Shown here: in pieces, positions 5,684-44,704 of the stretch
Position numbering within the stretch: the stretch's first letter is position 1
How the letters are laid out: each line of letters starts with the position of its first letter
Assembly: GCA_048816425.1 (NCBI GenBank)
Contig: JBMDZZ010000028.1
Coordinates: forward strand, 24,766 to 88,765
Source: Oligoflexus sp. FD111
GTDB lineage: Bacteria > Bdellovibrionota_B > Oligoflexia > Oligoflexales > Oligoflexaceae
Direction: 5' to 3'
DNA length: 64,000 bases
Position numbers and translations under genes: made by a program
Notes under the pieces: generated by a model
The model's database searches: none
Told to the model about the DNA's origin: nothing
Seen by the model: only the letters and a program-made list of their open reading frames with translations

Positions 5684-5769
5684 CATAAAAAGCGAATTTA
5701 TCCTCGACACAAAAAGCGAATATTAATACAACATAAAAAGCGAATAATCGCACAGCATAAAGAGCGAGA
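5684..5769 (+). repeat. four direct repeats CA(T/C)AAA(A/G)AGCGA(A/G) at exact 24-bp spacing, immediately upstream of the Fic gene
   Basis: Copies start at 5684 (CATAAAAAGCGAAT), 5708 (CACAAAAAGCGAAT), 5732 (CATAAAAAGCGAAT) and 5756 (CATAAAGAGCGAGA). The last copy ends about 10 nt before the ATG at 5779. Confidence 0.85.
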
Positions 5770-5778
5770 AATTCCACG

Positions 5779-23440: not shown

Positions 23441-24058
23441 ATGGGGAAAAAAGGAAATAAAAATCAATTTATAGAAGCAACCACCAAAATCCGGGAGAAA
23501 GGTGGCACTCTTCGCATGTCCGAAGCCCTCCAGATGGGTATCTCTCGCAAGACCCTCTATTCGATGCGCGACGAGGGAGTCTTAGAACAAATTAGTCGGG
23601 GTATTTACCGGCTAACCGAGCTAGCAGACCTTAGCCAGCCTGATCTTGTTACTGTCGCGAATCGAGCACCAAATGGGGTGATATGCTTAATATCTGCCCT
23701 TTCGTATCACGAGCTCACCACTCAAATTCCCCATGAGGTCCACCTAGCTATAGAGCGGGGAGCAGAGACGCCTCGCATCGATTATCCTCCGGTGGCCATT
23801 TACTGGTTTTCAGGAGCAGCTTTCCGCGAAGGAATAGAAGTTCACATGATCGATCAAATGCGCATACGGATCTACAGCCCTGAAAAGACGATCGCTGACT
23901 GCTTTAAATATCGCCATAAGATCGGGATGGATATTGTACTGGAGGCATTGAAGCTTTGGCGGGAAAAACGATCAGATAAAACCGAAGAGCTACTAAAAAT
24001 GGCACGTTTTTGCAGAGTCGAGCGTGTCATTCGACCTTATTTGGAGGCCATCATATGA
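23441..24058 (+). CDS. abiEi: AbiEi-family type IV toxin-antitoxin antitoxin (second copy)
   Basis: 205 aa. The N-terminal segment is LRMSEALQMGISRKTLYSMRDEGVLEQISRGIYRL. ATGA overlaps the downstream gene. Confidence 0.85.
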   Translation: MGKKGNKNQFIEATTKIREKGGTLRMSEALQMGISRKTLYSMRDEGVLEQISRGIYRLTELADLSQPDLVTVANRAPNGVICLISALSYHELTTQIPHEVHLAIERGAETPRIDYPPVAIYWFSGAAFREGIEVHMIDQMRIRIYSPEKTIADCFKYRHKIGMDIVLEALKLWREKRSDKTEELLKMARFCRVERVIRPYLEAII

Positions 24059-25017
24059 CTATAAAAAATCTTCCAGCGTCTGTACGAGCGCGCATCATGC
24101 AAAGGGCTAAAGACACAAACAGGCCTTTCCAAGAAGTCTTGCAATACTATGCCATGGAGCGGTTCTTATACCGATTATCACAGTCATCATACAATCAAAA
24201 CTTTGTTCTCAAAGGCGCATTAATGCTGCGTGCTTGGAATGCAGCGGATACTAGGCCAACACGAGATATTGACTTGCTTGGTCAAATAAATAATGAAACA
24301 GAGTATCTCACTCAAGTCTTTCGAGAAATTTGCGCTGCTAACGTTGAGGCAGATGGTATTTTTTATGACCCAGCGACTGTCAAAGGTGAAATAATCAAAG
24401 AGAATGCGACCTATCATGGAACTCGGATCATATTCCGTGGCAAACTCGAAAATGCTTCAATTCCTATGCAGATCGATATCGGTTTCGGCGATGTTGTTTC
24501 ACCAAAACCTATGGATATTGAATATCCAACTATTCTCGACTTTCCCGCTCCTAAGTTAAATGGATATCGGCCTGAAACCGTGATCGCTGAGAAGTTTCAA
24601 GCTATAGTGGCTCTTGGTACTCTTAACAGCCGTATGAAGGATTTCTATGATATTTGGCTCTTGAGTAGGCAGTTCAATTTTAAAGGCGCAAACATGGCAG
24701 AAGCGCTTGATGCCACCTTTAAGAATCGAAATACCCCAATGCTACAAAATCCTGATGCATTACAGACTCCGTATACTGAAAGTGATTCAGTTAAAAAGCA
24801 ATGGGCAGCGTTTATTAAAAGAAACCGAGCAATTGATATTCCTGTCTCATTTGTGGAAGTAGCGAATGCCATTTCAAAATTTGTGGAGCCATTCAGTGTC
24901 GAGAGAAATGAAGATATTCACAATCTTTTTTGGACGGCACCAGGCCCATGGAATTCGTCCGAGGAGGCTTTGCAGGAATTAGCAAAGATGGCTCAAGAAT
25001 TAGACATGGGATATTGA
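24055..25017 (+). CDS. abiEii: AbiEii/DUF1814 nucleotidyltransferase toxin (second copy) with an atypical 17-aa C-terminal tail
   Basis: The start at ATG 24055 (MTIKNLPASVRARIMQRAKDTNRPFQEVLQYYAMERFLYRL) overlaps the abiEi stop. The NTase motif is FVLKGALMLRAW...RPTRDIDL. The tail is SSEEALQELAKMAQELDMGY. Confidence 0.85.
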   Translation: MTIKNLPASVRARIMQRAKDTNRPFQEVLQYYAMERFLYRLSQSSYNQNFVLKGALMLRAWNAADTRPTRDIDLLGQINNETEYLTQVFREICAANVEADGIFYDPATVKGEIIKENATYHGTRIIFRGKLENASIPMQIDIGFGDVVSPKPMDIEYPTILDFPAPKLNGYRPETVIAEKFQAIVALGTLNSRMKDFYDIWLLSRQFNFKGANMAEALDATFKNRNTPMLQNPDALQTPYTESDSVKKQWAAFIKRNRAIDIPVSFVEVANAISKFVEPFSVERNEDIHNLFWTAPGPWNSSEEALQELAKMAQELDMGY

Positions 25018-25212: not shown

Positions 25213-26385
25213 CTATTCGCTCTCCGTTTCAAAATCCCAGAGAAATGGTCTAAATGCATTGACAAATGGATTTGTGTTTTCAAGGAAAAACTTCATGATA
25301 TCAGCCTTGGCTTCCTCAGAATAAATTTCTTTTACAGGCTTTTTAAAAATAATGGTCATGTCTAAGCTTGATTGGTTAGGCCTCCATAAAACTCCATTGG
25401 GAAGAATTTTAAGTATTTCATTCTTATGCTCATCAAGAAGCCTGAAAACTTTTTCATCAAATTGTGCTTTTTTTGTAGCACGAAAATATATCCCGACCTG
25501 TCCTGATGCTGGTGCGAAATACAAAGATATCCATGCTTTGCCAGATGGAGTTAAATTGAAGTAGAGATTCTGGCCTTTAGAAGCTTTAGGAAATGGCTGC
25601 TCAGGGTCGTCTAACCTAATTTTAGACAGGAAGTCAGACCAAAATTCGAAGTAATAGTTGCTTTCTTCACTTGTTTCACTAGACTCGATTTCTTCTTCTA
25701 CTGTAATTTGGCTGTTTTTAAACGAAAGTACGGTTCTTTCGATGATCGAAGTTTTCGCGTGTAATCGCGGGATGATGATTTTTTGCTCATTGTCCGCGTA
25801 TACATCGATTGTGATAAGAGAAAGATTGAAATGAAGATTAATGTGGTTTCTCAGATAGCTTGAAATAGCTGCCGTTTGAGACCGAATTCCATCTCCTGCT
25901 ATGATTAAGTGTAACCTTCCAGCTTGCAGATTATGCGATACATGATCTATGAACTCTGCTTCGTCGATCGTACTATTAGCGGAGTAAATCAACTCGAAAA
26001 GGTGGTTCCCGGATTTTTTATGGTGTCTTGAGACTTCTCTTTGAAGGTCTGCGTAAGACCATTGAGAGAATTCCTTAGCATAGTCTAGAATCTGTGCAAT
26101 GACCTTTCTTCGTGCTTCAGGATTTTTCCAAAGTTTGGTCTCGACCAGAACAATTTGGCCTCTTGGTGTCACGAAAAGTATATCAATCGGTCCAGCAGGT
26201 GTATAGAATTCACGTGCTATAGGCACAAGTTCTGCTAGGCCAGGATCAATCTCTTCAATTGGGATGGTCTCAGGATGCTTGAAAAGGAAATCTTGGAGCC
26301 ATTTCTCACTTAACTCTCCTCTACTACCGGTGGATAGAACTGACGATGATCCATCTGATTTCAATAAACAAAGTTTAAAAACCAT
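25213..26385 (-). CDS. PD-(D/E)xK nuclease-fold protein (NucS/DUF91-like N-terminal domain, DUF4268-like C-terminal part)
   Basis: ...WLQDFLFKHPETI...AGPIDILFVTPRGQIVLVETKLWKN gives a D ... E-x-K arrangement. The C-terminal YYFEFWSDFLSKI region resembles DUF4268 (recalled). Confidence 0.5.
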   Translation of the reverse strand: MVFKLCLLKSDGSSSVLSTGSRGELSEKWLQDFLFKHPETIPIEEIDPGLAELVPIAREFYTPAGPIDILFVTPRGQIVLVETKLWKNPEARRKVIAQILDYAKEFSQWSYADLQREVSRHHKKSGNHLFELIYSANSTIDEAEFIDHVSHNLQAGRLHLIIAGDGIRSQTAAISSYLRNHINLHFNLSLITIDVYADNEQKIIIPRLHAKTSIIERTVLSFKNSQITVEEEIESSETSEESNYYFEFWSDFLSKIRLDDPEQPFPKASKGQNLYFNLTPSGKAWISLYFAPASGQVGIYFRATKKAQFDEKVFRLLDEHKNEILKILPNGVLWRPNQSSLDMTIIFKKPVKEIYSEEAKADIMKFFLENTNPFVNAFRPFLWDFETESE

Positions 26386-27008
26386 TTTGATTCACTTTCA
26401 TTCTGATCTTTTGATGTTATCGGAAGATTTTAAGGGCAGTGCTAGGTAGGGTTTTCCTAACGTCGGGATCGCTAGGCAAGAACCGTTCGGTATATGGTGA
26501 GTAAAGTATTTTTTATAGATAGTTAAAGGCGATATTGAACTAAACCAAGGAAACGAGGAGCTTCGAGGAAGTGTGCAGTACATTAACCGTTGGTACAGAT
26601 TGCAATACGTGCCTGTAGCCACGTTAGTTATTTTTCTCGTGTGATTGTTTGTTTGATTTAGTAGCGAAATTGCCGAAAAATGAAAAAGACTTATTGATGG
26701 TTTATGGATTTGGTCCTGTCAAGACAAAAGCCTTTGATTAGCTTATATTAAAGCATTTAAATGAATTTTTGTTCAATCAAGCAGGATAACTAATCTGTTA
26801 GTTCGAAATCGCGTTTCAGTGTAATCAGGGAAATATTGCGCATGCTGATCGGCATGTCTTAGATCAAGATTTCCGCTCTCTTAAGTTTCTAATCGTAGAG
26901 CTTTTTATAAACAATAACATCAAGTTATATCGGAGTTCGTTAAGAGTCTAGGCAATAGGCCGAATAAACTATTTGCAAGATTTTTTTACCTTAACCGCCA
27001 GGTTCACC

Positions 27009-28157
27009 ATGATCGACCCAAAAAGCCATGACCGACTACGTAAAGAGATTAGTGCACGCCTGGTGGAAGATAAATCTATTCTAGACCTACTTCGGCGAGA
27101 AATATCTATTATCAAGTCGGACGTTCACCCTATTAAATCACAGTCATCAGCTTCGATTGCGCTTGTTGCTGCTGATGGAGGCAATAATAGCCTGAAATTT
27201 GATCCGTTCATGGTGCAGCTCGTACGAGTTGTTGACTCAAGCAATAATGAGTATTGTTTGGAAGCTATTACGCCAACAACCGATGTCATAGCATTAAGTC
27301 GAAGCCAGTTTAAAAAAGATGGAACGCCTAGGACAGCTTTAGGGACTATGATGCAGTTTCTAAATACCCCGACTTTACCCGATCTGTCCTACATGATTAA
27401 GAGTCCAGCTAGTAATGAACCAGTTTCAACTTCTTGGATTAAGGCCTATCGGGAGCTAGTCGAATGGGCCATACTTTTTAATATCGTAAGAACTAAGGAT
27501 TTTGCGACCGACACCCTTTTAATCTTTGACGGACTTTTACGCAGCAAGGTCTTTTCATCAGATAACTTTATAAAGCTTAAGGAAGGTTTTGCTGAGGCAA
27601 TAGAGCATCAACGGGTCAAACATCGCCGTAATATCTACTTGGCGGGCATCGCCAAACATTCGAAAGTCATCGAGCGCTATCGATTAGCTATGCATCTAGA
27701 AAGCATCTTGACCTGTGATTATCCCGCTTATGTCGAAATCCCTAGGGAAATTGAAGAGAAAGCTTATAAATGGTCTGAATATGCCAGGGGCGATGATAAC
27801 GTAGTTGAAGGTGAAGTGAATAGATTTGTCGCTGGTAAGATGTTTTTTGTTAAGTTTGGCACTTCCCTGCGCGATCCAATCTGGCCAATCGATATCTTCA
27901 CATCTCAACTGAGCCAAGCTCCAACCATCTTAGGTTGCATGCTGGAAGACGCTAAAAATGGCTTTCCAGTTCCTCATTATCCCAGATGCCTGCAAAGGGC
28001 TCATGATAATGCAGCTCTGGTCGATTTTGATACACATATTTTGCAAGACGAAATTTTGAATGCTCTACGCCTTGCTTTGGGCGACAGTTGGACAGTCTTG
28101 GATAGTTTTTTGATCCAGGATCACGATCCAGCGAGAGCGCGCTACAGGAAGGCTTGA
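27009..28157 (+). CDS. NurA-like nuclease
   Basis: NurA-type blocks are IALVAADGGNNSL, TLLIFDGLLRSKVF and IYLAGIAKHSKVIE. I chose the start at ATG 27009 (MIDPKSHDRL) rather than the TTG at 26973 in the ORF track. The stop lies 1 nt before the HerA-like start. Confidence 0.6.
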   Translation: MIDPKSHDRLRKEISARLVEDKSILDLLRREISIIKSDVHPIKSQSSASIALVAADGGNNSLKFDPFMVQLVRVVDSSNNEYCLEAITPTTDVIALSRSQFKKDGTPRTALGTMMQFLNTPTLPDLSYMIKSPASNEPVSTSWIKAYRELVEWAILFNIVRTKDFATDTLLIFDGLLRSKVFSSDNFIKLKEGFAEAIEHQRVKHRRNIYLAGIAKHSKVIERYRLAMHLESILTCDYPAYVEIPREIEEKAYKWSEYARGDDNVVEGEVNRFVAGKMFFVKFGTSLRDPIWPIDIFTSQLSQAPTILGCMLEDAKNGFPVPHYPRCLQRAHDNAALVDFDTHILQDEILNALRLALGDSWTVLDSFLIQDHDPARARYRKA

Positions 28158-28158
28158 T

Positions 28159-30294
28159 ATGGGACTAGAACTCTTTCCTAAAGATCGTATTGTAGGCGTG
28201 TTTCGTGGTTTTCAGGAAGGTGGCTATGAGTTTAAAGCTGATTTGGTTCTGCCTTACCAAGCTGACTTTCAAAACCGTCCTATGCATGGGCAGTTTCTCC
28301 TCATTCAATTGGAGACGCCCGACGAAGCGATTATGGGAAGGATTGCCTCACTTTCTTCCGAGGGTAGAATGGCATATGGCAATGGAGAAGAATTCAGTAT
28401 CAGAGCGGTTCAAGAGAGCCGGGATGTACCTGACGATCTTCGTCAGCAATATCTCCGTTATCGGGTAAGTGTCCGGATCTTAGGAGTTCTTAGAAAGACG
28501 GAAGATGATAAGGTCAAGTTTGCGCCGTCGCATCGTAGACTGCCTCATGTTGGTTCTCCAGTAGCATTTCCATCCGACCAAGTGCTCCGTGAAATTGTCG
28601 GTCATAACATTCAGGGGGCAAAAATTGGACACTTTGCACTGGGCGAGTTTGTGTATTGCGGTGATTCAGATGACACCGAACTTGACGGCTGGGCTTTAAA
28701 ATGTGAACCGGAAGTCGAGATCAGATTTTCTATTGATAAGTTAGTAGCGCGCAGAAGTTTTATCTTTGCGCGAGCTGGCTATGGTAAATCGAATCTAAAC
28801 AAGCTTCTCTTTAGCGCCCTATACCAGAATACGCCACTCGTTCAGAAGAGAGACAAGCAAGTTCCAGTAGGGACGGTGATATTCGACCCAGATGGAGAGT
28901 ATTTTTGGCCAGACGATAAAGGGAGGCCTGGTCTCTCCGATGTTCCTCACCTAGAGGACAAGCTTGTTGTATTTACTGACCGGCGGGCTCCAAGTCGCTT
29001 TTACCAATCTTTCGTTGCTGGTGGAATCCGGCTAGATATCAGAAGGTTAAGGCCTGCTGATATCATTGCTATCGCCCTTCCTCCCGAGAAGCAGGACCAG
29101 CAAAATGTTAGTAAATTAAAGGCTTTAGATGACAATCGTTGGGCCGAATTGGTCGATTTGATTTATTTAAATGGCAATGACACGACCATCGAGGATATGT
29201 GCCGTACCCTACGTCTTGAAATCGGTAGACAGGATGCCGAAGCTATTGCCGCTAGATCAAATATGTCTGTCATCGTGCGTCTGTTTCATGATCCCTCAAG
29301 TCAGTTCATGGATAAACTGCTCTATTGCCTCTCTAAAGGTAAACTTTGTGTCGTGGATGTGTCTCAGATGCGTGGGACCCAATCATTGATCCTTTCAGGT
29401 TTGGTTCTGAGACGAATCTTTGATAAGAACCAGGACGAGTTTACCAAGCAGCATCCGCAGACTATTCCGACTATTGCTGTGATTGAAGAAGCTCAATCTG
29501 TTTTAAATGACAAGGCGAGTGCCGCAGCTCCATACGTTGAATGGGTGAAAGAAGGTCGAAAATATGACCTTGGTGCGGTCTTGGTGACTCAGCAGCCGGG
29601 CAGTATACCTGTAGAAATTCTGAGTCAAGGAGATAATTGGTTTGTATTTCATCTGCTCTCATCAGCGGATCTTGCGTCTGCGAAGCATGCCAATGCTCAT
29701 TTCAGCCAAGATATTCTGAACTCGCTTTTAAATGAACCGATTAAAGGGCAGGGGGTTTTCTGGAGTTCAGAAGGCGGAACAGCATATCCGGTGCCTTTGC
29801 GGGTGCTTTCGTTCAATATGATCTACAAGATGACCGATCCGGAGTTCAATCGAAATCCTCATGATACATTCGCCAGTCAAGTCGAGCAACGGTTTGCTAG
29901 CATTGTAAGGCGAACCTCTGACCCGAAAGAGTCTGGTAATGCTAGTAACGGCGGAGCTTTAGGAAACCTGAATCAACCCAATTCCAGTGCGAATACTGAA
30001 AGTATAGTAAAAACTACCCGTGAAGATCCTCTTCGTAGCTTAGAGGAGAAGGCAAGGGAAAGAATTGAAAACGACGAATTTATTATGAACGCTATCAATA
30101 GCGAACAAGGTGTGGCCTGGGGAAGAATCAAAGCTGCGATAAAGGAAGTGGTTCCTGATGAGATGGATGATCCCGGAAAAATCGCTTATAACCTCGTGCC
30201 TTACGTCTTAGCTTCTCTATTAGGGGAAAAAAATAGCAAATGGGAGACTTATCGGCATGAAACCCGGAATACTACGTATGTGCGGGCAAAGTAA
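28159..30294 (+). CDS. HerA/FtsK-superfamily ATPase (DUF87-type) with a ~150-aa C-terminal extension
   Basis: Walker A FARAGYGKSNL, Walker B TIAVIEEAQSV, and LGAVLVTQQPGSI. The N-terminal barrel-like region reads IVGVFRGFQEGGYEFKADLVLPY...GQFLLIQL...IMGRIASL. Confidence 0.8.
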   Translation: MGLELFPKDRIVGVFRGFQEGGYEFKADLVLPYQADFQNRPMHGQFLLIQLETPDEAIMGRIASLSSEGRMAYGNGEEFSIRAVQESRDVPDDLRQQYLRYRVSVRILGVLRKTEDDKVKFAPSHRRLPHVGSPVAFPSDQVLREIVGHNIQGAKIGHFALGEFVYCGDSDDTELDGWALKCEPEVEIRFSIDKLVARRSFIFARAGYGKSNLNKLLFSALYQNTPLVQKRDKQVPVGTVIFDPDGEYFWPDDKGRPGLSDVPHLEDKLVVFTDRRAPSRFYQSFVAGGIRLDIRRLRPADIIAIALPPEKQDQQNVSKLKALDDNRWAELVDLIYLNGNDTTIEDMCRTLRLEIGRQDAEAIAARSNMSVIVRLFHDPSSQFMDKLLYCLSKGKLCVVDVSQMRGTQSLILSGLVLRRIFDKNQDEFTKQHPQTIPTIAVIEEAQSVLNDKASAAAPYVEWVKEGRKYDLGAVLVTQQPGSIPVEILSQGDNWFVFHLLSSADLASAKHANAHFSQDILNSLLNEPIKGQGVFWSSEGGTAYPVPLRVLSFNMIYKMTDPEFNRNPHDTFASQVEQRFASIVRRTSDPKESGNASNGGALGNLNQPNSSANTESIVKTTREDPLRSLEEKARERIENDEFIMNAINSEQGVAWGRIKAAIKEVVPDEMDDPGKIAYNLVPYVLASLLGEKNSKWETYRHETRNTTYVRAK

Positions 30295-30353: not shown

Positions 30354-30824
30354 TCAAACGGCATTGGGCACTTGGTTTTCCAGCTTTAATCGAAATAGAA
30401 TTTGTTGCAAAAGATCTTCTCCCATCATCTCCGGTTCTGATTCAAGGTCAACCGCAATCTGATGAATCCAGTAATCGGCTTCTCCAACAGAAATTTCAAT
30501 ACTTCGTATTTTTTCGTTTTTCTGCTTATTTGCATTAGGATAAATTAGCCAAGCATTTTTCGATCCACTTGCAACCATATAAGCCAACATTTGATAGGCG
30601 TCTGCTGTGTTAATAGTATCCTTTTCAAAACTAGCTTTATACTTTGTATCTAAAATGGTGGACGATATAGGTTCTTGCCTCAGGCTGATTTGTAGGTCAG
30701 GGTAGCATTTCACATGGCTTGTGCGGTCCAAATACATTGACTTTTGCAAATGCAGATCAATACCATATGCAGATGCCGCTCGACTTAGACTTTTACTGAC
30801 ATAGCGCTCAAATAATGAAGCCAT
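30354..30824 (-). CDS. stand-alone McrC-like PD-(D/E)xK nuclease domain (156 aa)
   Basis: LFERYVSKSL ... STILDTKYKA ... ADAYQMLAYMV matches the McrC/LlaJI-type C-terminal nuclease block (FE.fv ... DtKYK ... yQ..aY). It lacks the N-terminal half of McrC. Confidence 0.5.
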   Translation of the reverse strand: MASLFERYVSKSLSRAASAYGIDLHLQKSMYLDRTSHVKCYPDLQISLRQEPISSTILDTKYKASFEKDTINTADAYQMLAYMVASGSKNAWLIYPNANKQKNEKIRSIEISVGEADYWIHQIAVDLESEPEMMGEDLLQQILFRLKLENQVPNAV

Positions 30825-30934
30825 ATTGTAAACGCCCCATTAACAAACGTCTAGCCCACCCAAAAGGAAAATCCTAGACTTGTCCTAGCAAGCCGGGCAT
30901 CCATTCAGCCTGAGTTGTTAGCCAGTCTACGAAT

Positions 30935-32032
30935 TTAAAGATTAGATGGGTAACCTATAAAATTTATTGGCTTTAGCTGACTATGCTTATCAACGGATCC
31001 TTTTAGTACATATATTCTACCGCCAATACTAAATTCGAATACTCTGTAGATACGGTATGACTCTCCGAAGATCTTTGATTTCTCAATTTCATTTAAAGAA
31101 ATTTTATACGGAGTGTTGATTCCGCCGTTAGTTGTTTTTACTTCTATGTAAATCACTGAACCATTTTCATCGAAAGACTCAATGTCGTAACCTAAACCGT
31201 CGCCTTCTTTATCAGATACCCACTTTACCCTTTCTGCTAGATCGGGACGTCCTATAGAGCTCAGCTTAATTTTCTCAGTTTCATAAACGAATTTTTCACC
31301 TAAATTACCTAGCTCCTTATTTGTTGCATATAGAGCGTCATATTCAGGTTTTGAAGAATTAAAGTTCCTGTTTTGTTCTGCAGGCAATTGCAGGATTGGA
31401 GGGTCAACAAATATTTCCTTTGAAGCATACTTTGGTACGATGATGAAACCAAGTTCCGACAATATTCTAAAGCATTTGGTCCCTCGGCCTCCTTTAAAAC
31501 CAAAAAGAACTTGCCCAGTCACGTACCTAGCAGCTAAGCCAACAAGTGCTTTAGGAGGATAACGTCGTTCGTTATATAGGACGTCATATCCTGTCGACTC
31601 TTTAAATTTGTGCGAAATTTTTTGCTCGTCAAAATCCCTGATGGCGTCGATAATATGCTCGTACGTTATATTGTCTGGAATTTCGCTATCAGGAAGATAC
31701 TCTCTCTTTTTATCAATGCGATTCTGTCCTGGGTCGAATTCGTCATTTAACCACCTTTCGACCTTACTATGTGTCGTTGTACTTATCTCAAGCAATACCC
31801 GAACTGCACGAATCACTTCGTAAACCCAAGTGTTTCGATGACTTAGGGAATAAGGTATGTTTGTAAACGGATTTATTCCAAAGGCATGTTTGCTTAGATA
31901 AATATCCCAGAGTTTTCTATCAGATTCTTTTTGAGTCTTTTTTAAAGCAAGGTCATATATAAGCTTCTGTATTTCTCTATCAGGAAAAGCTTCACGTATT
32001 GGAGTTGGAAGTTTCAATGATTCAAAATTCAT
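30935..32032 (-). CDS. DUF3883 (restriction-endonuclease-like) protein with a central domain resembling the ScoMcrA-type sulfur-binding/DNA-reader domain
   Basis: DUF3883: GEKFVYETEKIKL...VKWVSDKEGDGLGYDIESFDENGSVIYIEVKTTNG...YKISLNEIEKSK...YRIYRVFEF. The central segment YDVLYNERRYPPKALVGLAARYVTG...FKGGRGTKCFRILSELGFIIV contains Y-P-x-x-A, which I recall as the sulfur-pocket residues of the SBD. Confidence 0.65.
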   Translation of the reverse strand: MNFESLKLPTPIREAFPDREIQKLIYDLALKKTQKESDRKLWDIYLSKHAFGINPFTNIPYSLSHRNTWVYEVIRAVRVLLEISTTTHSKVERWLNDEFDPGQNRIDKKREYLPDSEIPDNITYEHIIDAIRDFDEQKISHKFKESTGYDVLYNERRYPPKALVGLAARYVTGQVLFGFKGGRGTKCFRILSELGFIIVPKYASKEIFVDPPILQLPAEQNRNFNSSKPEYDALYATNKELGNLGEKFVYETEKIKLSSIGRPDLAERVKWVSDKEGDGLGYDIESFDENGSVIYIEVKTTNGGINTPYKISLNEIEKSKIFGESYRIYRVFEFSIGGRIYVLKGSVDKHSQLKPINFIGYPSNL

Positions 32033-32089
32033 GATTAGCTCCTTAATTCTGTATTGCCACGGAGTTCGACGTCAAAAAAATTTCCCATT

Positions 32090-32745
32090 TAATGTGAGAC
32101 ACATACACCTCGCCTATCTCAAAGTTTTTTTGCCAGCTCCGTGGCTGTAATTTCACCGTCGATCTTCTCCTTTACCTGCTGTGTCCATGCACTTGAGTAT
32201 CTGCGTTGGTTTCCCATGAACATATACGCCATCCGGAGTCATCGGATTACCACCTCGCTTGGGTATCAATGTCTAGCGCGGACGATGGGAGTTATAGCGA
32301 TGCTTGAATTTGGCCAATCTCTCGTACTGCAAACGGTGAATCGGAGATTTTCCAGTAAACCTCTTCCTGTTTAAATGTCTGATGGAATCGCTCAAGAAGG
32401 CGTAGCTGTTGTGGCGTTCGATACTGAATGCGCACATATGTGAAATTGTCGTTATTTAATTATCCAGCAAATCGCCTCGGTACAAAGTATGGACCATTAT
32501 CAGTCACCAGGAATACAGGAGCATTCAGCTTGCTGCAAATCCTTTCTGCCTAGGCTTTCGCCACTTGCAAAGCTTCGCAGCAGCCAGCCGCCCCATAGCT
32601 AGGTGGGGAGTGGCATACAAATAGATAATGCGAGAAATAGTCAATCTCTGTCACTGCATTTCACCTGCCATGATCTGATGCATACACATATGTAATATCA
32701 TCCTGCCAGAACTGATTTGGACGCACAGGCAAGAGTTCATAAAGT
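32090..32745 (-). pseudogene. IS481/IS3-type DDE (rve) transposase pseudogene
   Basis: The minus-strand translation reads PVRPNQFWQDDITYVYASDHGR*NAVTEIDYFSHYL...A*AERICSKLNAPVFLVTDNGPYFVPRRFAG*. The DDE landmarks (W..DIT, DNGP.F) are interrupted by several stops. Confidence 0.65.
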
Positions 32746-32761
32746 TTTTGAGCTTGATACA

Positions 32762-32975
32762 TGAGGTGCGTTGAACATAATTGGAGAAAATCGAATCTTT
32801 TGCTAAGCTACTATAATTGCGAAGGAGATTCGGTAGATGCAAAAGAATAGGCTCCATCGTTCTTTCGCAACCTAGCAAAAAACCGACATTGTTCGCTGTG
32901 TACAGTCCGACTCATCAATCCAGCAAGGGCTTTTTCAAGTACCTAGAGGTTGAAAATAGCCAGTTCAAAGAGGGT
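32762..32975 (+). mobile_element. solo left-end fragment (copy C) of the IS3-family element found at 33747 and 54741
   Basis: It starts TGAGGTGCGTTGAACATAATTGGAGAAAATC, nearly identical to the left ends of copies A and B. It carries the orfA start (MQKNRLHRSFAT*QKTDIVR...) with a stop and an internal deletion of ~130 nt, and it ends near CAGTTCAAAGAGG. Confidence 0.6.
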
Positions 32976-33032: not shown

Positions 33033-33620
33033 TTGGATTCAGTTCGTTGGTACGATCAGCATGCCCAAGATTTTTTTGATAGTACGATCAATGTAGAAAT
33101 GGGTGGTCTTTACTCCCGGTTTCTCAAAACGATGCAGCCAAAAGCAAAAATTTTGGATGCCGGTTGCGGAGCTGGACGGGATACTCTTTTTTTCTCAATG
33201 CAAGGGTATGACGTGCAGGCCTTTGATGCGGCACCCATATTGGTCGAGCTAGTCAGAAAGCATACCGGCATTAATGTGCAAGTCATGAGGTTTGAAGATC
33301 TCAAATGCCAAGATGAGTTCGATGGAGTATGGGCATGCGCCTCATTACTCCACTTTGATAAACATGAACTTGAAAGGGCATTAGCAAGGTTGTTTGCAGC
33401 CCTCAAGGTCGGTGGAGTACTTTATACTAGTTTTAAATATGGTACGGAAATATACGAACGTGATGGAAGGCAGTTTTATCCTTTTAACGAAGAAAGTTTT
33501 ATTGAGGTGATTACAGCTCATATGCATGTTGAACTCGATAGCATTTGGATAACTCATGATGTGCGTAAGGAAAGAACTGACGAGAAGTGGCTCAATTGTT
33601 TAGTACGACGTATTGAATAA
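33033..33620 (+). CDS. small class I SAM-dependent methyltransferase
   Basis: The SAM-binding motif is KILDAGCGAGRDTLFF, followed by VQAFDAAP and GVWACASLLH. The protein is 195 aa with a TTG start. The gene is sandwiched between IS fragments. Confidence 0.7.
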   Translation: MDSVRWYDQHAQDFFDSTINVEMGGLYSRFLKTMQPKAKILDAGCGAGRDTLFFSMQGYDVQAFDAAPILVELVRKHTGINVQVMRFEDLKCQDEFDGVWACASLLHFDKHELERALARLFAALKVGGVLYTSFKYGTEIYERDGRQFYPFNEESFIEVITAHMHVELDSIWITHDVRKERTDEKWLNCLVRRIE

Positions 33621-33746
33621 TTCCTGGAAATTTCCAGAATGGATGGCCGATTGTGATGTAGCGACGAGAGCTACCTCAAATATAACCATGTCACCACAAG
33701 TATCCCGTCCAGAAACAAACGATGACGCTGCTACAGGCTCATATTT

Positions 33747-35198
33747 TGAGGTGCGTTGAACATAATTGGAGAAAATCAAATCTTTTACTAAGCTATCATA
33801 ATTGCGAAGGAGATTCGATCGATACAAAAGATGATACCCCGTCGTTCTTTCATACACCCCAGCAAAAAGCCGACATTGTTCGCGGTGTCCAGTCGGCTTC
33901 ATCAATCCAGCAAGCGCTTGACCAGATTGGATTTACCAGCAGCTTATACTACAAATGGTCGAGGCAGCTTGAGGTTGGAATCAACACTAGCCTTCGCAAC
34001 TCAAAACCCCTAAATTCTGTCGAATTGAAGCGCCTAATGGCTGAAAATAGGCAGTTCAAAGAGGTTGTTCTCAACCAATCACTGGAATTGACCATTTTAA
34101 AAAAAGATTGAGTTTGGATCCATGAAGGAGGGCTTCAGAGTGAGCTACGAATATAAAGTCGCAGTGATTGAATTTGTCGAACGCTAACTGGAGCTTGGTC
34201 AATCGCGGAGCAATACTTTGGCAACTTTAAAGATTTCGCCTTCAACTTACTATATAGCTGGAATAAGGCTGTCCTTAATGCAGAAAAGCCTAAGAAACCA
34301 GCCAAGCCACATCCTATGAAATTGACTCCAGGTGAAAAAGAGCTCATCCTCGCAACAAAAAAAAACTATCCAACGATGAGGCATAGGCAGATATAGGACG
34401 TGATGCAAGGTGAAGGCTGCAAAATTTCGCCAAGTTCAGTTTTTACCGTCTTAAAAGCTAACGGAAAGGTTGAACCTTTTAAGCGGCGTGAAGCACCGTG
34501 GAAAGAGCCTAAATACGAAGTGCGAGCTAGAAACCTTATTTGGGGAAAGGATTGGACGAAGATCAAGATCAATCACGAAACCTGGCAGCTTTTGGCTCTC
34601 ATCGTTTTTTCTAGAAAAGTCATTGCATGGGATATCCAGCCAAGCATCAATGCGGGCCATATCAAGGCGATCTATAGCCAAGCACTTGCGGCCGAGCAAC
34701 TAACGCACAAAAAGCAAAAGCTCAAGTGACGGGTGGATCAAGGTTCGCCCAATACCTCTTGGTCATCAATGAGTTTATTGCAAGCCTTGCAGGTGAGCTA
34801 TCGCTTGCGCGAGTCAGAAGGCCTATCGACAATGCAATAACAGGGCGGTTTTACGGCACGATAAAGCAAGAAGAGATTTTTGTAGTTGGTAGCTATCCTG
34901 ACCTGTGATCAGCTAAATCTGAAATAGGAAACTACATCGAATTTTATAATGAATACAGGCCACATCAAGCAATATGGTATTTACGCCCGACTATATGCAT
35001 GAGCTGTACAATAAATCGAAAGCATTGGCTGAGCTAGGGGTCATGAAACATGCCACTAAACGTCGCCACCGCGAGTACTGAGAGTTGAGGGAAGCTTATG
35101 ATTTATAGCAGAAATTCAGGCAAGAGTTGACGAATGTGCCAAGCCAGGATATCACACAAACCTGATCGGCTTTCTCCAAGTTCGACTTAAGCACCACA
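33747..35198 (+). mobile_element. IS3-family insertion sequence, copy A (1452 bp), with orfA and orfB both pseudogenised
   Basis: Left end TGAGGTGCGTTGAAC, right end ...GTTCGACTTAAGCACCACA (reverse complement TGTGGTGCTTAAGTCGAAC, IR-like). The orfA-like segment is QQKADIVRGVQSASSIQQALDQIGFTSSLYYKWSRQLE. The orfB rve landmarks W..DWTKI, FSRKVIAWDI, DQGSPNTS and DNAITGRFYGTIKQEEIF are interrupted by several stops and frameshifts. Confidence 0.75.
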
Positions 35199-35400: not shown

Positions 35401-36285
35401 ATGAAACTAGGTGGGCATCAGACTTTTCACCTCAGAGAGTCATGGCTTCATAAGGGCATGGCCTCTCTAGTGAACGACCATAGAATTTTCCAAGACGCCA
35501 TGGCGTCAAGTAGGCTTGGAGTTGGCAAGAACATGGTCGAAGCCATGCGGTATTGGCTTCAGGCATGTCAACTTGTAAAGATTGATGACGAATATAGCCT
35601 AAGTAAAGTTGGATCGAAAATCTATGAAGCTGATCCTTTTTTTGAGCTAGATGGTACAGTGCTATTGCTACATTATTTACTCGCAACAAACGAGAGGCAA
35701 GCAACTGCATGGCACTGGTTTTTTAATAAGTTTGGTGCGACCGACTTCGACATAGATGGAGTCCAAGTATACTTAACGACCTATCTTGCAAACACACTGA
35801 AGAAAAATAGTAGCCCAAATGTTATTAGGCGAGAGATACAATGTTTGCTCAAGATGTATACGGATGTCGAGTACAGGATACGGGAAACCCCAGAAACAGA
35901 AAACCCCTCTCCATTTTGTAGGTTTAAAAGCATTCAAAAGGATGGTGAGAAATATCGTAAAGTTGGATTTGACGTTAACTTGATCGATCCACTTATTTAT
36001 AGCTACTGCTTATATCTATTCTGGATAATGACTGAACGCCCAGCAACAATTTCTTTCGAAAATATTTGCAAGCAGCCGGGTTCACCAGGGGTTATCTTTG
36101 GACTTTCGAGTGATAGCAATATCTATATTCTCGAATTAGCAAAGGAAATCGATTCTGCTCCGATAGCAATTAGCAGGAGTGGAGGGTATTTTTCGATATC
36201 AATTGATGAAGAAAAAGCCGCTAAAACACTAGATTTTTATTACGATAAATATTCTGATCTTTTGCAGGAATCAAGATGGCTATAA
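35401..36285 (+). CDS. sspB: SspB-like DUF4007 protein (phosphorothioation-system nickase family)
   Basis: The N-terminus MKLGGHQTFHLRESWLHKG matches the DUF4007 signature as I recall it (GHETF.LR..WL.KG). It is the first gene of a 4-gene block with an ATPase, a PAPS-reductase-like protein and a cysteine desulfurase. Confidence 0.7.
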   Translation: MKLGGHQTFHLRESWLHKGMASLVNDHRIFQDAMASSRLGVGKNMVEAMRYWLQACQLVKIDDEYSLSKVGSKIYEADPFFELDGTVLLLHYLLATNERQATAWHWFFNKFGATDFDIDGVQVYLTTYLANTLKKNSSPNVIRREIQCLLKMYTDVEYRIRETPETENPSPFCRFKSIQKDGEKYRKVGFDVNLIDPLIYSYCLYLFWIMTERPATISFENICKQPGSPGVIFGLSSDSNIYILELAKEIDSAPIAISRSGGYFSISIDEEKAAKTLDFYYDKYSDLLQESRWL

Positions 36286-39200
36286 ATATTGAACTTCTTC
36301 CTTATTTGGCTGATGAGATTTCACTCGCACCTAGTTTTGACCGATCGACAAATCTAGAGGCAGATTTTAATAACAAGAAAAAGATAGATACGATTTATAT
36401 TTCCGAAAAATTTGCATCTACTTTAATTGATATTATTCATTCCGTCCTAAACGAAGATAGCAATCAGCGTGTACGGGTTTTTTCTGGCTCCCCAGGGCTC
36501 GGTAAGTCAACATTTGCGCTTCTACTCTTGAAGATATTATCTAAGAATCAAACCACAAATATAAGACAGCTCTTAGCTAAGGCTGAAACAAATAACGTCG
36601 AAGAACTTAGTGAGCTTTTGGAATCCTTCATCACCAAGAAAAGAGGAAACAAACTTCTTCCAATTATTATTAATGGCTATGAAGGCGACATCGAAAAAGC
36701 TTTTTTACATAAGCTTGAAAAGGCATTTAGTGATGCTGATTTAGCCAATGAGTGGAAAGAGCTCTTGGTAAAAACAACTGACTTGACTAGTATTATAAGA
36801 GACTGGAAAAAAAATTATCCTAGGGTCTATGATCAATATTTAAGTAGCTTAAATGAAAACTTATTGATCCAGAAATCATTTGAAAGTGGATTAAGGAAAG
36901 GGCAACTGAAGAATAGGGAAAAGTTTCTCGAAATTTGTGAACAAGTGACAGGCAGGACAAATGCAAATACCCCGTCTTCTGATGTCATTCACCTGTATAA
37001 AAGCGCCACCAAATTATTGTCTGAGCGTGGTTACGGGGGAGTTTTCGTTGTTTATGATGAATTCGGAAAATACTTAGAAAAAGGTATTCACTCACCGTCT
37101 AGTCTGAATGTTCAGTTTCTTCAAGACTTTGCTGAGTTTTGTGATCGTTCTGGTGAATATCAGTGTCATTTGGTCTTAATAACTCATATGTCGGTTAGTC
37201 AATATGCCTCGCAATTACCGATAAACATCCAAAACGAATGGGCGAAAATTGAAGGACGTTTCCAAGAAAATAGCTTCTATGATAGATCCGTAAATTACTA
37301 CCGCCTTATAGAAAAAGTTTTTGAAAAGAAACTTTCAGATAACAAGAGGTCTAAGCTTTATCGTAAAGCTAGGTCGTTCTATTCTAACTTTGTTGAGGTA
37401 TTTAACAAAGTTTCGGGCCTAGAAGGCTTTTTAGATGCCGTTAGCGTTGATCTCATCATTAATTGCTTTCCACTTCACCCTATTTCTTTAGCCTTTCTTC
37501 CATTTCTTTCACAAAAAGTGTCACAAAATGAAAGGACATTGTATACCTTTCTAACTAGAGAAGAAGATCATTCTTTAAATAGCTTTTTGCAGCAGAGTTA
37601 TGCTGAAGATGAAATACCATTGCTAATGCCGTCCAGATTGTATTTATATTTTAGTAATTCGATCAAAAGAGACCTTGGGCCTGGTGGTGTCTATCGGATA
37701 GGTTTAATCGCCGAAGAGGCGCTTAACACTGTTTCAGCTAAAGACAGCTTAGCTCACGAACTATTGTCCATTATTGCCCTGTCAGAAGTTATTAAGATGC
37801 CAAGACTTGCACCAGTTAATGAAGAGTTTCTAAAGGCAAGTTTGATAGGCCTGTATACTCATAAAGATGTAGCGAAGAAATTAAAGGAGCTTCAAGAACA
37901 GAAGTTGATTTTCTATAATCGCTTTAGGGAGCGCTTTGAGCTACGACAAGGATCCTCGGTGGATCTGCAAGAAGAGCTTGATAAAGGGCGAGAAATCAAA
38001 TTAACGAGCAAAGATCTTGTTGGTATTATTAAAAAATATAATAATTATGACTATATAATCACAAAAAAATATAATTTTAGCCATAATATTTGTAGATTCT
38101 ATGAAACATGTTTGATTTCTGTAGAAGAGCTGAAGGGAAAGAAATTTAGGTTATCTCCAGATTACGATCAAACAGATGGAATTGTTTACTACATTTTGCC
38201 TTTTGATCAAGATGAGCTTGCTGTAGCTAGGGAGTTAGTTGATCAAGTAAAATCCGAATTGGTTGTGTTTATACTTCCTAATAAGTTCATTGAATGCCGC
38301 AAGGATATCGAAGAACTAAATGCGATTAATAGTCTTTATAGCAATAAAGAACTGCTCGCTACAGGCCCCCTAGTCCGCAAGGAACTCGACTTCCATAAAT
38401 CAACCGTCTTAAAATCGATTGAGAGAGTTCTAGATCCGGTCGTCGGAAGGTTTGGCATTGACGTAACCCTAAAGTATAATAAAATCTTTGATAATGTAAA
38501 ATGCCGGTCTTTCATCGAACTGCAAAGGTATCTCGGAGAAGTATTCACACACGCATATAGCTCTTCTATTGATATAAATTCTGAGCTTATAAATAAACAT
38601 AAAGTTTCCTCGTCTGTTACTCTTGCTCGGCGGATTTTTATTCAACACCTTATTGAAAATCCAGATAAGAATGAATTAGCAATCGAGGGCAATGGCCCAG
38701 AAAAGGCACTTTATTATGCTATTAAAGAAGTTAGCGATGTTGTATGGGATAATACTTCAAACAAGTTGAAGCTCGGACCTAAAAACAAATTAGACCAATT
38801 ATACAAGATGTATCAGAAAATGCTTGCAAAAAGCTCCTCAGGCGTAAGCTTTGAAACAATTATAGATACATTTAGTAAACCACCATTTGGACTGAGAAAA
38901 GCCGTTATTCCATGTTATATCGCAATTTTTGATTTAATATCGGAAAACCAGGTTAATCACTATTTTCAGGACGCGTACGTCTCTAATCCAGACGGAGAAC
39001 ACTACGATTTAATCTTCCGCCATCCGAAACTATCTCGCATTCAAATGACTAAAATAACAGACGTCCATGAAGTGTACCTTAGAACTGTAGCTACTGCTTT
39101 CGGAGCAAAGCAAGTCGACAGTATTCCCGATATCGTCAGTGCAATCTTCAACTGGAGAAAGGCCATTCCTGAATATGTCAAATATTCGGATGAAGTGTCT

Positions 39201-39947
39201 ATCAAAGCAAGGCGAATCCTTGTAGCCATCGACAGCGCTGAAGAACCTGATAAACTTCTCTTCAAAAGTCTTCCCGAATCATTAAGATTTAATACAGAAA
39301 ATGAAGATTACCTGCGGAAACCATTGTTAGTGGAAAAAGAGTTGCAGGAAGCTTTGATTGACGCTAAGCAAGCATATTCAAATCTACTTTTTAAAATTAG
39401 AGATCACCTCGAAGAGGCTATTCAGATACTAAATGACAAATGTCTATCCAAGAAACTCAGAATCGATACCAAAAAAGATCTAGCTGGTTCCTATAAACTT
39501 ATTTTTTCAGCTCTTGAAAGCAGGATTAGAAACCATAAGTTTTCGAAAGTAACGACTCATTTTATAGAACGATTTATGACTTTCGATACCACCAGCCATA
39601 AGCAGTATTTTGTAGAAACTATTGGAGATGTCTTAACTGGAGCCAGTCCTCGAGTTTGGGAGGGTAAGACGATAAACTTATTTCTTTTCACGCTTCATAA
39701 AGTCATGGAGGAAATAATCCATGTTTCTTCGACTGTATCATCAGAACTCGAAGGACATTCTGTAGTTGCAATTACTAATATTAGCAATAACCAGAGTAGA
39801 TACATTGATTTAGGTGCAAAGCAGGGGCTTAAGACTAAGCATCTAAAGCTTAAAAATGAGATACTTGAAAAATTCGAAGATGACTGGTCACCAACAGATA
39901 TCAAAATTCTCCTAGTTGATTTGTTATCGACATTGGATTTAAACTAG
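36276..39947 (+). CDS. sspC: SspC-like large P-loop ATPase (BrxC/DUF499-style)
   Basis: 1223 aa with Walker A FSGSPGLGKST and Walker B-like VFVVYDEFGKY. The start overlaps the sspB-like stop by 10 nt. Confidence 0.65.
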   Translation: MAINIELLPYLADEISLAPSFDRSTNLEADFNNKKKIDTIYISEKFASTLIDIIHSVLNEDSNQRVRVFSGSPGLGKSTFALLLLKILSKNQTTNIRQLLAKAETNNVEELSELLESFITKKRGNKLLPIIINGYEGDIEKAFLHKLEKAFSDADLANEWKELLVKTTDLTSIIRDWKKNYPRVYDQYLSSLNENLLIQKSFESGLRKGQLKNREKFLEICEQVTGRTNANTPSSDVIHLYKSATKLLSERGYGGVFVVYDEFGKYLEKGIHSPSSLNVQFLQDFAEFCDRSGEYQCHLVLITHMSVSQYASQLPINIQNEWAKIEGRFQENSFYDRSVNYYRLIEKVFEKKLSDNKRSKLYRKARSFYSNFVEVFNKVSGLEGFLDAVSVDLIINCFPLHPISLAFLPFLSQKVSQNERTLYTFLTREEDHSLNSFLQQSYAEDEIPLLMPSRLYLYFSNSIKRDLGPGGVYRIGLIAEEALNTVSAKDSLAHELLSIIALSEVIKMPRLAPVNEEFLKASLIGLYTHKDVAKKLKELQEQKLIFYNRFRERFELRQGSSVDLQEELDKGREIKLTSKDLVGIIKKYNNYDYIITKKYNFSHNICRFYETCLISVEELKGKKFRLSPDYDQTDGIVYYILPFDQDELAVARELVDQVKSELVVFILPNKFIECRKDIEELNAINSLYSNKELLATGPLVRKELDFHKSTVLKSIERVLDPVVGRFGIDVTLKYNKIFDNVKCRSFIELQRYLGEVFTHAYSSSIDINSELINKHKVSSSVTLARRIFIQHLIENPDKNELAIEGNGPEKALYYAIKEVSDVVWDNTSNKLKLGPKNKLDQLYKMYQKMLAKSSSGVSFETIIDTFSKPPFGLRKAVIPCYIAIFDLISENQVNHYFQDAYVSNPDGEHYDLIFRHPKLSRIQMTKITDVHEVYLRTVATAFGAKQVDSIPDIVSAIFNWRKAIPEYVKYSDEVSIKARRILVAIDSAEEPDKLLFKSLPESLRFNTENEDYLRKPLLVEKELQEALIDAKQAYSNLLFKIRDHLEEAIQILNDKCLSKKLRIDTKKDLAGSYKLIFSALESRIRNHKFSKVTTHFIERFMTFDTTSHKQYFVETIGDVLTGASPRVWEGKTINLFLFTLHKVMEEIIHVSSTVSSELEGHSVVAITNISNNQSRYIDLGAKQGLKTKHLKLKNEILEKFEDDWSPTDIKILLVDLLSTLDLN

Positions 39948-39979
39948 TACCTATACAAAAGTATTGGGGTCCGTTTTTT

Positions 39980-40798
39980 ATGTCACAATTCTTATACGAC
40001 GCAAATAGGCGTCAAATTTGTCCACTGTCTGGAGGAAAAGATTCAACTGCACTCGCAATTTTTCTGAAAGACAAGATTCCAAATCTAGAGTACGTCTTTA
40101 CTGATACGGGTGCCGAACTCCCTGAGACTTATGAGTATCTCGATAAATTAGAGGCTTTTTTAGGTAAACCAATCGTCCGATTAAATTCTGACAAACCGTT
40201 TGATTATCTTTTGAAAAGGCATGGTGATTACCTACCCTCTCCTAGAGCCCGCTGGTGTACTATTGAAATGAAAATAAAGTCGTTTGAGAAGTTTATCGGT
40301 GATGATCCTATTGAAAGTTATATTGGAATTCGAGCAGACGAAAATCGTGATGGTTATATTTCAAAGAAAGAATCCATAAAACCCCGCTATCCCTTTAAAG
40401 AGCTCGGAATAGACCTTGGGGGAGTGAATAAACTACTCGACCAAGCAGGAATCGGACTGCCTAAATACTATGAATGGCGATCAAGATCGGGGTGCTATTT
40501 CTGTTTCTTTCAAAGAAAAATCGAATGGGTAGGTTTAAAAGAAAGACATCCCGATCTATTTGAAAAAGCAAAAGAATACGAAACCCGAAGCTACAGGGGG
40601 GACGGGGTGAAATTCACTTGGGTTCAAGACTCCCCACTAGAGGAGATCGCGACTAACGCGGAATTTATAAAAGAAAATCATGCCAAAAGAATGGAGAGAG
40701 AGACTAAGAAGCAATCCAACAAACGCCTTTCCGATATTTTTAAAGATGTAGTGTCAGATGACGATATGGAAGACTCTTGTCTAATTTGTGACCTTTAG
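39980..40798 (+). CDS. sspD: SspD-like PAPS-reductase/ATP-pyrophosphatase family protein (DndC-related)
   Basis: The PP-loop is CPLSGGKDST. C-terminal cysteine clusters are SGCYFCFF and SCLICDL. The protein is 272 aa, shorter than canonical DndC. Confidence 0.75.
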   Translation: MSQFLYDANRRQICPLSGGKDSTALAIFLKDKIPNLEYVFTDTGAELPETYEYLDKLEAFLGKPIVRLNSDKPFDYLLKRHGDYLPSPRARWCTIEMKIKSFEKFIGDDPIESYIGIRADENRDGYISKKESIKPRYPFKELGIDLGGVNKLLDQAGIGLPKYYEWRSRSGCYFCFFQRKIEWVGLKERHPDLFEKAKEYETRSYRGDGVKFTWVQDSPLEEIATNAEFIKENHAKRMERETKKQSNKRLSDIFKDVVSDDDMEDSCLICDL

Positions 40799-40933
40799 CA
40801 TCACTATTTCGCGCTAGTACACTAGCGCAATGTCTTTTCCTGCTTGAGTTGTGATCTCAAAAGTAATACTTTGCCATTAGTCTTACTGCATCGCTTCTTG
40901 CGATGAAAAACTTCCAAATTCGAAGCAGATCAG

Positions 40934-42058: not shown

Positions 42059-42383
42059 TTATCGATTTTGAATTTAAGAGCTTCCCATATGCGTATAGTT
42101 TACCTTCTAAATCTTAAAGTAGCTATGAGAAAAAAAACGCACCAAAGGTGCCCAGGTGGTTTTCTAAAGATGTTCTATTAGCCAAACATTTTTATAAAGC
42201 GTGCCATAAAGAAATTTATTTCAGTGTTAAGTGTTTTGAGGCAGTTGATGATGCGCAATTAGAAATAACTTCATTTCGCTAATTGGGTTGCATCTCAATC
42301 TTGACAGAGTAAAAACTTAGTAATCAAAGGTGTTACTATGAAAATGGTATGGCCTTGCTGATAAATTCTTTAAATGTGATCAA

Positions 42384-42848: not shown

Positions 42849-42927
42849 ATGGATATGGAGCATCTTTTACATGAGAACAATCCTTCTGACACAAAATAAA
42901 AAATTATAACCTCTTAAGGATGCTTCC

Positions 42928-44700: not shown

Positions 44701-44704
44701 TATT

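Follow-up and report, generated by a model that had tools for sequence, protein, structure and literature searches.

Does Oligoflexus sp. FD111 carry a restriction enzyme that reads phosphorothioate DNA next to the very genes that write this modification? The question is raised by a 64,000-nt stretch of contig JBMDZZ010000028.1, which was analysed as a whole and is called the window here. In it, two open reading frames (ORFs) for proteins of 365 and 156 amino acids (aa), named P0001 and P0002, lie on the minus strand at exactly the coordinates first reported for them and are separated by a 110-nt spacer. An earlier reading of the letters (the original prediction) took the central segment of P0001 for the sulfur-binding domain (SBD) of ScoMcrA-type enzymes and P0002 for a stand-alone McrC-like nuclease domain, and saw a paradox in a phosphorothioate reader ~3 kb from a phosphorothioate-writing Ssp cluster, unless the two differ in sequence specificity. 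The cluster is indeed there, and sspB starts 3.4 kb from the start of P0001. We arrived at a different answer, to which we give a probability of roughly 0.72: P0001 is a restriction-type nuclease of three modules and not a phosphorothioate reader, P0002 is the remnant of an mcrC gene, and both lie in a scrambled defence island.

The answer depends first of all on the central domain of P0001. A profile of 47 homologues was compared with all PDB chains (E ≤ 10) and matched residues 3-96 of ScoMcrA (chain 5zmm_A, 561 residues) in a single stretch, with an E value of 1.3e-15. The SBD region of this chain was unmatched by the profile, even at that threshold, and so was every other PDB chain of the ScoMcrA kind. 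The AlphaFold model of P0001 residues 113-205 (pLDDT 93.2, pTM 0.85) has three helices and four short strands in ~90 aa. In a Foldseek search of the PDB, this model found ScoMcrA chains only (probability 0.91-1.00, TMq 0.49-0.58, 74-85 aligned columns and 23-25% identity; for the best chains, 83-85 columns and a root mean square deviation of ~3 Å), and ScoMcrA was also the top match of the whole-P0001 model. Nothing significant beyond ScoMcrA was found for this domain with Foldseek in the PDB and BFVD. A ParB/sulfiredoxin-type fold recurred among very weak matches (probability ≤0.08) and was treated as noise, and a PDB search with the single P0001 sequence returned nothing relevant. The family concerned, PF26345, is named ScoMcrA_N in the contig annotation, and the precomputed Pfam pair on P0001 and its homologues is PF26345+PF13020. 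The Pfam release that we scanned locally predates PF26345, so no match to this domain was expected there; the central and N-terminal parts of P0001 had none in that release, in NCBIfam or in PHROGs. Profile and predicted structure thus agree that the central domain corresponds to the N-terminal head domain of ScoMcrA (ScoMcrA_N) and not to the SBD.

ScoMcrA consists of a head, an SBD, an SRA domain and an HNH domain (PMC6224610; PMC7461809). Its SBD is a separate domain of 10 helices with a peripheral 3-stranded sheet, and it holds Y164/P165 and the S187RGRR191 loop (PMC6224610). The strings quoted in the original prediction, YNERRYPPKALVGLAARY and FKGGRGTKCFRILSELGFIIV, are present in P0001. 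Its assignment of Y-P-x-x-A, GG and LGF to a ScoMcrA block named the right protein and the wrong domain, since the block lies in the head. P0001 does have Y158-P159 and G181GRGTK, but in a domain that is not homologous to the SBD. In the profile alignment, YPPKA...KGG...LGF of P0001 stands opposite YDSKA...SGG...EGF of the ScoMcrA head. Because ScoMcrA's own head reads Y-D-S-K-A at the motif, the Y-P dipeptide is no conserved sulfur pocket, and its resemblance to the SBD pocket is a coincidence. P0001 is therefore not expected to read phosphorothioates, as it has no SBD. Other modification readers (SRA, PUA/EVE, DUF3427 and winged helix) were, like the SBD, not recognised in P0001 by family-library scans. 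The depositors of the ScoMcrA structure gave no known function for the head domain (Liu et al. 2018; PMC6224610), and our literature search on PF26345 and PDC-S36, a PADLOC family discussed below, found no papers. With no function reported for the head, nothing supports phosphorothioate reading. The Ssp system is, moreover, complete: none of SspB, C, D, A, F, G and H is missing, and SspFGH serves it as restriction partner. The paradox does not arise, because P0001 lacks a phosphorothioate reader and the Ssp system has a partner of its own.

The C-terminal DUF3883 module of P0001 was recognised correctly. NOV_C/DUF3883 (Pfam PF13020) matches residues 245-335 with an E value of 4.6e-21 and 75.1 bits (cut-off, 22.1). 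The best PADLOC model is PDC-S36 (E 2.8e-46), which aligns at its positions 118-277 of 280 with residues 205-360; TmtA (Tiamat) and PD-T4-1 are weaker matches. In the alignment of the 47 homologues, E246, D283 and E297-V-K299 fall in nearly invariant columns, and P0001 keeps all of the nearly invariant residues of both the head and DUF3883. After ScoMcrA, the Foldseek matches of the whole-P0001 model were generic PD-(D/E)xK nucleases, weak but consistent. The C-terminus is thus predicted to be a DUF3883/NOV_C nuclease of the PD-(D/E)xK type with an intact catalytic site. DUF3883 is the assigned catalytic PD-(D/E)xK domain of YenY4I, a tested modification-dependent enzyme, and also occurs in McaZI-type DUF3427-DUF3883 fusions (PMC6765204). 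The same domain serves as nuclease in Tiamat and HmaA (bioRxiv 10.64898/2026.09.30.754977).

We then investigated how these domains are combined in the family. Custom hidden Markov models for the head, a helical mid domain and DUF3883 were used to scan the 119 homologues listed. Mid-DUF3883 proteins of the ~275-aa PDC-S36 type (50/119) and head-mid-DUF3883 proteins (47/119) are the common forms; DUF3883 has other N-termini in 17 of the 119, and two proteins are head-HNH. Only three combine the head with DUF3883 and have no mid domain: two are head-DUF3427-DUF3883 proteins and the third is P0001, which alone has the head fused directly to DUF3883. The mid domain (DWSxxEV...KHQNISAVL...GYKP) is found in 97 of the 119 and is missing from P0001. 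The loss is clean, because in a tblastn search with a typical member (P0004) its residues 2-88 matched positions 31687-31430 of the window and its residues 217-369 matched positions 31408-30968, on either side of the gap. The PDC-S36 model (~280 positions, mid plus DUF3883) is covered by P0001 at positions 118-277 only, and its mid part is unmatched. P0001 forms a singleton cluster in a collection of 5.8 billion proteins and is the sole copy within its own genome. By domain content, P0001 is an outlier architecture in the ScoMcrA_N/NOV_C family (PADLOC PDC-S36, a computational candidate). Its head is closest to the heads of head-HNH proteins of 207-222 aa (56-58% identity). The head is evidently a shuffled N-terminal module of nucleases, as head-HNH, head-DUF3427-DUF3883, head-mid-DUF3883 and ScoMcrA all exist.

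P0001 has a further module in front of the head. Residues 1-103 share 69% aa identity with residues 1-103 of P0021, a 246-aa protein from a metagenome-assembled genome (MAG) of Oligoflexus, of the same family as the organism of the window; past residue 103 there is no similarity. No other relatives of this module were found by homology searches and region-restricted word searches; the latter, run for the N-terminus and for the head, gave hardly any matches. It matches no family in Pfam, PADLOC, NCBIfam or PHROGs. In the codons of the P0001 and P0021 modules, third positions are 46% identical, the nonsynonymous divergence (dN) is 0.205 and the synonymous divergence (dS) is saturated, and the DNA upstream of the two genes is unrelated. 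These values indicate that the module is old and has been subject to purifying selection, and that it is no fresh recombination scar. The P0001 gene looks live, with an AAGGAG Shine-Dalgarno sequence, intact catalytic columns and the N-terminal module at dN 0.205 with saturated dS. As for P0021 itself, its C-terminal part matches no family. Within positions 265-5681 of the Oligoflexus MAG contig L005, its gene has as neighbours a divergent Fic gene and a two-gene unit of McrBC-like appearance, with products of 292 aa (AAA_5) and 551 aa.

A mechanism can be proposed from this layout. P0001 would be a single-polypeptide restriction-type nuclease built of three modules, in which the DUF3883 domain (residues ~230-359) may, with the aid of a metal ion, cleave or nick DNA. 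The head (~113-205), a small α/β module, is probably a nucleic-acid-binding part for targeting or sensing. It might aim or gate the nuclease, and the N-terminal module may assist it where other family members have the mid domain. We assign this role to the head because nucleases always follow it in the chain and because head-HNH proteins contain no other non-catalytic domain.

The contexts of related genes fit a stand-alone defence-type nuclease, as far as comparison can tell. Head-mid-DUF3883 genes stand alone in a primase/AlpA-type mobile element, adjoining prophage genes, and beside a 794-aa gene with Vsr and a C5-methyltransferase (Dcm), in one context each. The island around another (in the metagenome locus L016) also encodes a PIN toxin-antitoxin pair and, as a gene of its own, SRA_ScoMcrA, and Vibrio prophage elements carry relatives as well. 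At L016 8001-10864, the head-mid-DUF3883 gene (P0012) is followed by an 80-aa ORF and then by a gene whose 305-aa product has an SRA domain of the ScoMcrA type (PF26348). P0012 and this SRA gene, with two ScoMcrA domains on neighbouring genes, could form a split type IV system.

We then investigated P0002. As had been recognised, it corresponds to the catalytic part of McrC only: it matches the Pfam family PF10117 (McrBC) at positions 216-318 of 318, with an E value of 4.9e-17. An exhaustive phmmer search of 1.84 billion representatives gave a 408-aa protein, P0122, as its best relative (38% identity, with P0122 residues 253-398); most other matches are McrC proteins of ~400 aa that align from residue ~255. 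Residue 1 of P0002 equals residue ~253-258 of the full-length relatives, and P0002 as a whole equals ~253-400 of a ~405-aa McrC. Alignment A3 places its Met1 on the internal Met that McrC proteins conserve in the MAxLFExYV block. The same alignment shows that P0002 keeps every invariant residue (F5, E6, Q27, D43, D59, K61, Y62, K63, Q78, Y82 and L93), among them the PD-(D/E)xK site of E6, P42-D43, D59-T-K61, Q78 and Y82. The FE...PD...DxK...QxxxY series of the McrC C-terminal domain is thus all kept, but P0002 lacks the ~250 N-terminal residues that engage McrB. In E. coli McrBC, McrC needs both its own N-terminal part and McrB for its action. The gene for P0122 lies directly 3' of a 928-aa McrB gene; in the 64,000-nt window, tblastn found neither an McrC N-terminus nor an McrB. 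The P0002 genome has no other PF10117 match, and a search of it with the McrB partner of P0122 came back empty, although this search had no positive control. No Shine-Dalgarno sequence is evident for P0002, and its cluster is a singleton. P0002 is most likely a 5'-truncated mcrC remnant and most probably not a working McrC, to judge from these comparisons.

The likely breakpoint can be located. The spacer between P0001 and P0002 holds a repeat of 55-86 nt with the core AGTCTAGGATTTTCCTTTTGGGTGGGCTAGACGTTGGTTAATGGGGCGTTTAC, which ends ...GGGGCGTTTAC, 3 nt 5' of the P0002 ATG. The McrC homology begins where the repeat ends. Three further copies exist in the genome, namely C18:71844-71928 (94% identity over 86 nt), C16:1-53 (98% over 53 nt, at a contig end) and C3:42196-42258 (86%). 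In the two of them with readable flanks, the repeat is intergenic and downstream of a gene of the same orientation. The repeat has no Rfam family and no significant fold, and it may be an element like a repetitive extragenic palindrome (REP) or a miniature inverted-repeat transposable element (MITE), or an att-like scar. Its end appears to mark the point at which mcrC was truncated. The 5' two-thirds of mcrC and the mcrB partner would have been lost in a rearrangement with this short dispersed repeat as breakpoint. On the HerA side, the edge of the putative McrC remnant lies 60 nt past the HerA stop codon.

The neighbouring NurA-like/HerA pair was another possible partner. In L016, the NurA-like and HerA proteins (cassette at 2593-7007) are 53% and 56% identical to those of the window, and the head-mid-DUF3883 gene mentioned above lies ~1 kb downstream of the cassette methyltransferase and ~2 kb from HerA. 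We collected 80 genome loci (L017-L096) that encode a HerA of this type (best segment 57-62% identical), together with flanks of up to 10 kb. They are spread across many phyla, and the pair is a widely and horizontally spread cassette. Within these flanks, no ORF of the head, mid, DUF3883 or McrC-like type was found at any of the 80 loci, and the positive controls worked. As 0/80 carry a head, mid domain or DUF3883, P0001 is not part of the cassette; an McrC-like gene as a cassette member was rejected on the same count. The L016-type methyltransferase (~380 aa, directly after HerA in L016) has a relative in the fetched flanks of 59 of the 80 loci, and no trace of it was found in the window. 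The gene content suggests that the HerA cassette of the window is clipped on its 3' side and has lost its methyltransferase.

P0001 and P0002 therefore have a disturbed neighbourhood (Table 1). They sit in a rearranged stretch of a defence island scarred by insertion sequences (IS), between the HerA cassette and the complete SspBCDA-SspFGH system. The two decayed IS3-family copies have common 5'-end repeats (32762-32973 and 33747-34064, 83-88% identity). Between them lies an intact gene for a 195-aa S-adenosylmethionine (SAM)-dependent methyltransferase, which has a TTG start and a weak PADLOC match to mad2. A 154-aa ORF between sspA and sspF (42384-42848) has no Pfam or PADLOC match.

Table 1. 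Features of P0001, P0002 and their surroundings, with positions in the window
Feature	Positions	Strand	Basis or remark
P0001	30935-32032	minus	365 aa; ORF and translation
P0001 N-terminal module, residues 1-103	31724-32032	minus	helical
P0001 ScoMcrA_N (PF26345) head domain, residues 113-205	31418-31696	minus	YPPKA / FKGG / LGF motifs
P0001 predicted DUF3883/NOV_C PD-(D/E)xK nuclease, residues 230-359	30956-31345	minus	Pfam and PADLOC matches
Shine-Dalgarno AAGGAG, 6 nt 5' of P0001 ATG	32039-32044	minus	sequence reading
Promoter-like TTGACG-18-CAGAAT 5' of P0001	32046-32075	minus	consensus match only
P0002	30354-30824	minus	156 aa; ORF and translation
Short dispersed intergenic repeat	30827-30913	not assigned	copies elsewhere in genome
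Giant RHS-type protein	15174-21428		
AbiEi/AbiEii	23441-25017		
NucS/DUF4268 protein, PDC-S11-like	25213-26385		
NurA-like/HerA pair	26973-30294		
Decayed IS3-family copy, first	32070-32960		
Small SAM methyltransferase	33033-33620		
Decayed IS3-family copy, second	33720-35100		
sspB, C, D, A and sspF, G, H	35401-51396		

A comparison with known systems places P0001 between several of them. ScoMcrA (Sco4631) of Streptomyces coelicolor is a type IV endonuclease dependent on phosphorothioate or 5-methylcytosine (PDB 5ZMM; PMC6224610). Its head is homologous to P0001 residues ~113-205 and, as in P0001, lies N-terminal to the nuclease domain. P0001 differs in that it lacks the SBD and SRA, has a DUF3883 PD-(D/E)xK nuclease instead of HNH, and carries the extra 103-aa module before the head; the domain through which ScoMcrA reads phosphorothioates has no counterpart in P0001. 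In the ScoMcrA_N-mid-NOV_C family of PDC-S36, a single-gene phage defence candidate of PADLOC-DB v2, the model is matched by the linker and DUF3883 of P0001, and the family heads are 22-53% identical to its head. Like the members of this family, P0001 is encoded by a stand-alone gene in a mobile or defence setting, but it lacks the mid domain and has a foreign N-terminal module. The head-HNH mini-nucleases of metagenomes (P0107, P0113, P0272 and P0273; 207-222 aa) have the closest heads and pass directly from head to nuclease like P0001, whereas their nuclease is HNH and that of P0001 is PD-(D/E)xK. McaZI (DUF3427-DUF3883) and YenY4I (PUA-DUF3427-DUF3883) have the same DUF3883 C-terminal to a putative sensor in one polypeptide (Lutz et al. 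2019; PMC6765204), and some P0001 relatives are head-DUF3427-DUF3883 proteins. P0001 itself has neither the DUF3427 nor the PUA reader.

Several points weigh against our reading of the two genes. We infer the targeting role of the head from its domain partners alone, and PDC-S36 is a computational candidate only. P0001 lacks a domain that most of its homologues have and stands among gene fragments, and so could be a dead mosaic. The strongest competitor, doubtful in our view but deserving real attention, takes up this last point: P0001 would be a non-functional in-frame mosaic of three gene pieces that stop codons have not yet hit. Its singleton architecture and singleton cluster, the clean absence of the mid domain, an N-terminus in common with the unrelated P0021, and flanks that hold a truncated mcrC, the dispersed repeat, IS3 debris and a HerA cassette without its methyltransferase all speak for such a mosaic. 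They have to be set against a strong Shine-Dalgarno sequence before an open frame of 365 codons, against the conservation of all catalytic and nearly invariant residues in DUF3883 and the head, and against predicted models in which both domains fold confidently. Purifying selection on the N-terminal module, as seen against P0021 with unrelated upstream DNA, further implies that the fusion is old and no fresh accident. The original prediction itself, with a ScoMcrA-type SBD in a phosphorothioate-dependent type IV P0001 and with P0002 as a deliberate stand-alone McrC-like nuclease beside it, is now highly improbable, and its SBD is refuted as far as domain homology goes. It draws on real observations, namely the Y-P-x-x-A string and the GG...LGF block, a central domain truly homologous to part of ScoMcrA, and the Ssp writer nearby. 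However, that part of ScoMcrA is the head, and no second stretch aligned. Nor does the fold agree, with three helices and four strands in P0001 as compared with 10 helices and three strands in the SBD; the ScoMcrA head deviates at the very motif, and Ssp is already paired with SspFGH. We give still less credence, indeed hardly any, to P0001 (with or without P0002) as an accessory effector of the NurA-like/HerA cassette: the proximity of a related pair and a head-mid-DUF3883 gene in L016 suggests it, yet it was repeated at none of the 80 HerA loci, and three other family contexts have no HerA.

For P0002, the alternative is a functional stand-alone McrC-type PD-(D/E)xK nuclease that starts at the conserved internal Met and is perhaps co-transcribed with P0001. 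Two facts count against the remnant here: P0002 keeps all catalytic residues in an open frame, and McrC tails of ~150 aa also occur inside metagenome contigs. There is, in addition, no terminator-like site between P0001 and P0002, and about a dozen relatives of ~140-175 aa start at the same Met. One of these lies inside two metagenome contigs: P0135, a C-terminal-only McrC ORF of 151 aa that is identical in both (L009 265-3493 and L010 360-1776), just upstream of a large gene (>845 aa) with PDDEXK_1, RNase_H_2 and AAA/IstB-like regions. P0135 could be a further remnant or a genuine partner nuclease of small size. A stand-alone P0002 is nevertheless improbable. It has no recognisable Shine-Dalgarno sequence, its homology starts exactly at the repeat boundary, and the conserved internal Met is the first start codon open to any 5'-truncated copy. 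The McrC N-terminal part and McrB, which are needed according to general knowledge of E. coli McrBC, were not found here, and the nearest relative of this singleton is full length and only 38% identical. The truncation remnant fits P0002 better, an outcome that the original prediction had itself named as its refutation.

These results clear away a misleading clue: the phosphorothioate writer of Oligoflexus sp. FD111 has no restriction enzyme dependent on phosphorothioates beside it, and no self-targeting has to be explained. Instead, the window is a documented case of a rearranged defence island, with a truncated mcrC, a HerA cassette without its methyltransferase, a mosaic nuclease, IS debris and a dispersed repeat. 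The attention now moves to the head domain, which has been without an assigned function since the ScoMcrA structure of 2018 and is repeatedly the N-terminal part of nucleases, HNH and PD-(D/E)xK alike. P0001 and the head-HNH proteins are the simplest constructs for asking what the head binds. A speculative possibility is that the head itself senses nucleic acid or a DNA modification and suffices to aim the nuclease in P0001 and in the ~210-aa head-HNH proteins, with the N-terminal module of P0001 adding a second input. If this is true, P0001 and the head-HNH proteins would be restriction enzymes of a minimal, type IV-like kind whose reader belongs to a new class.

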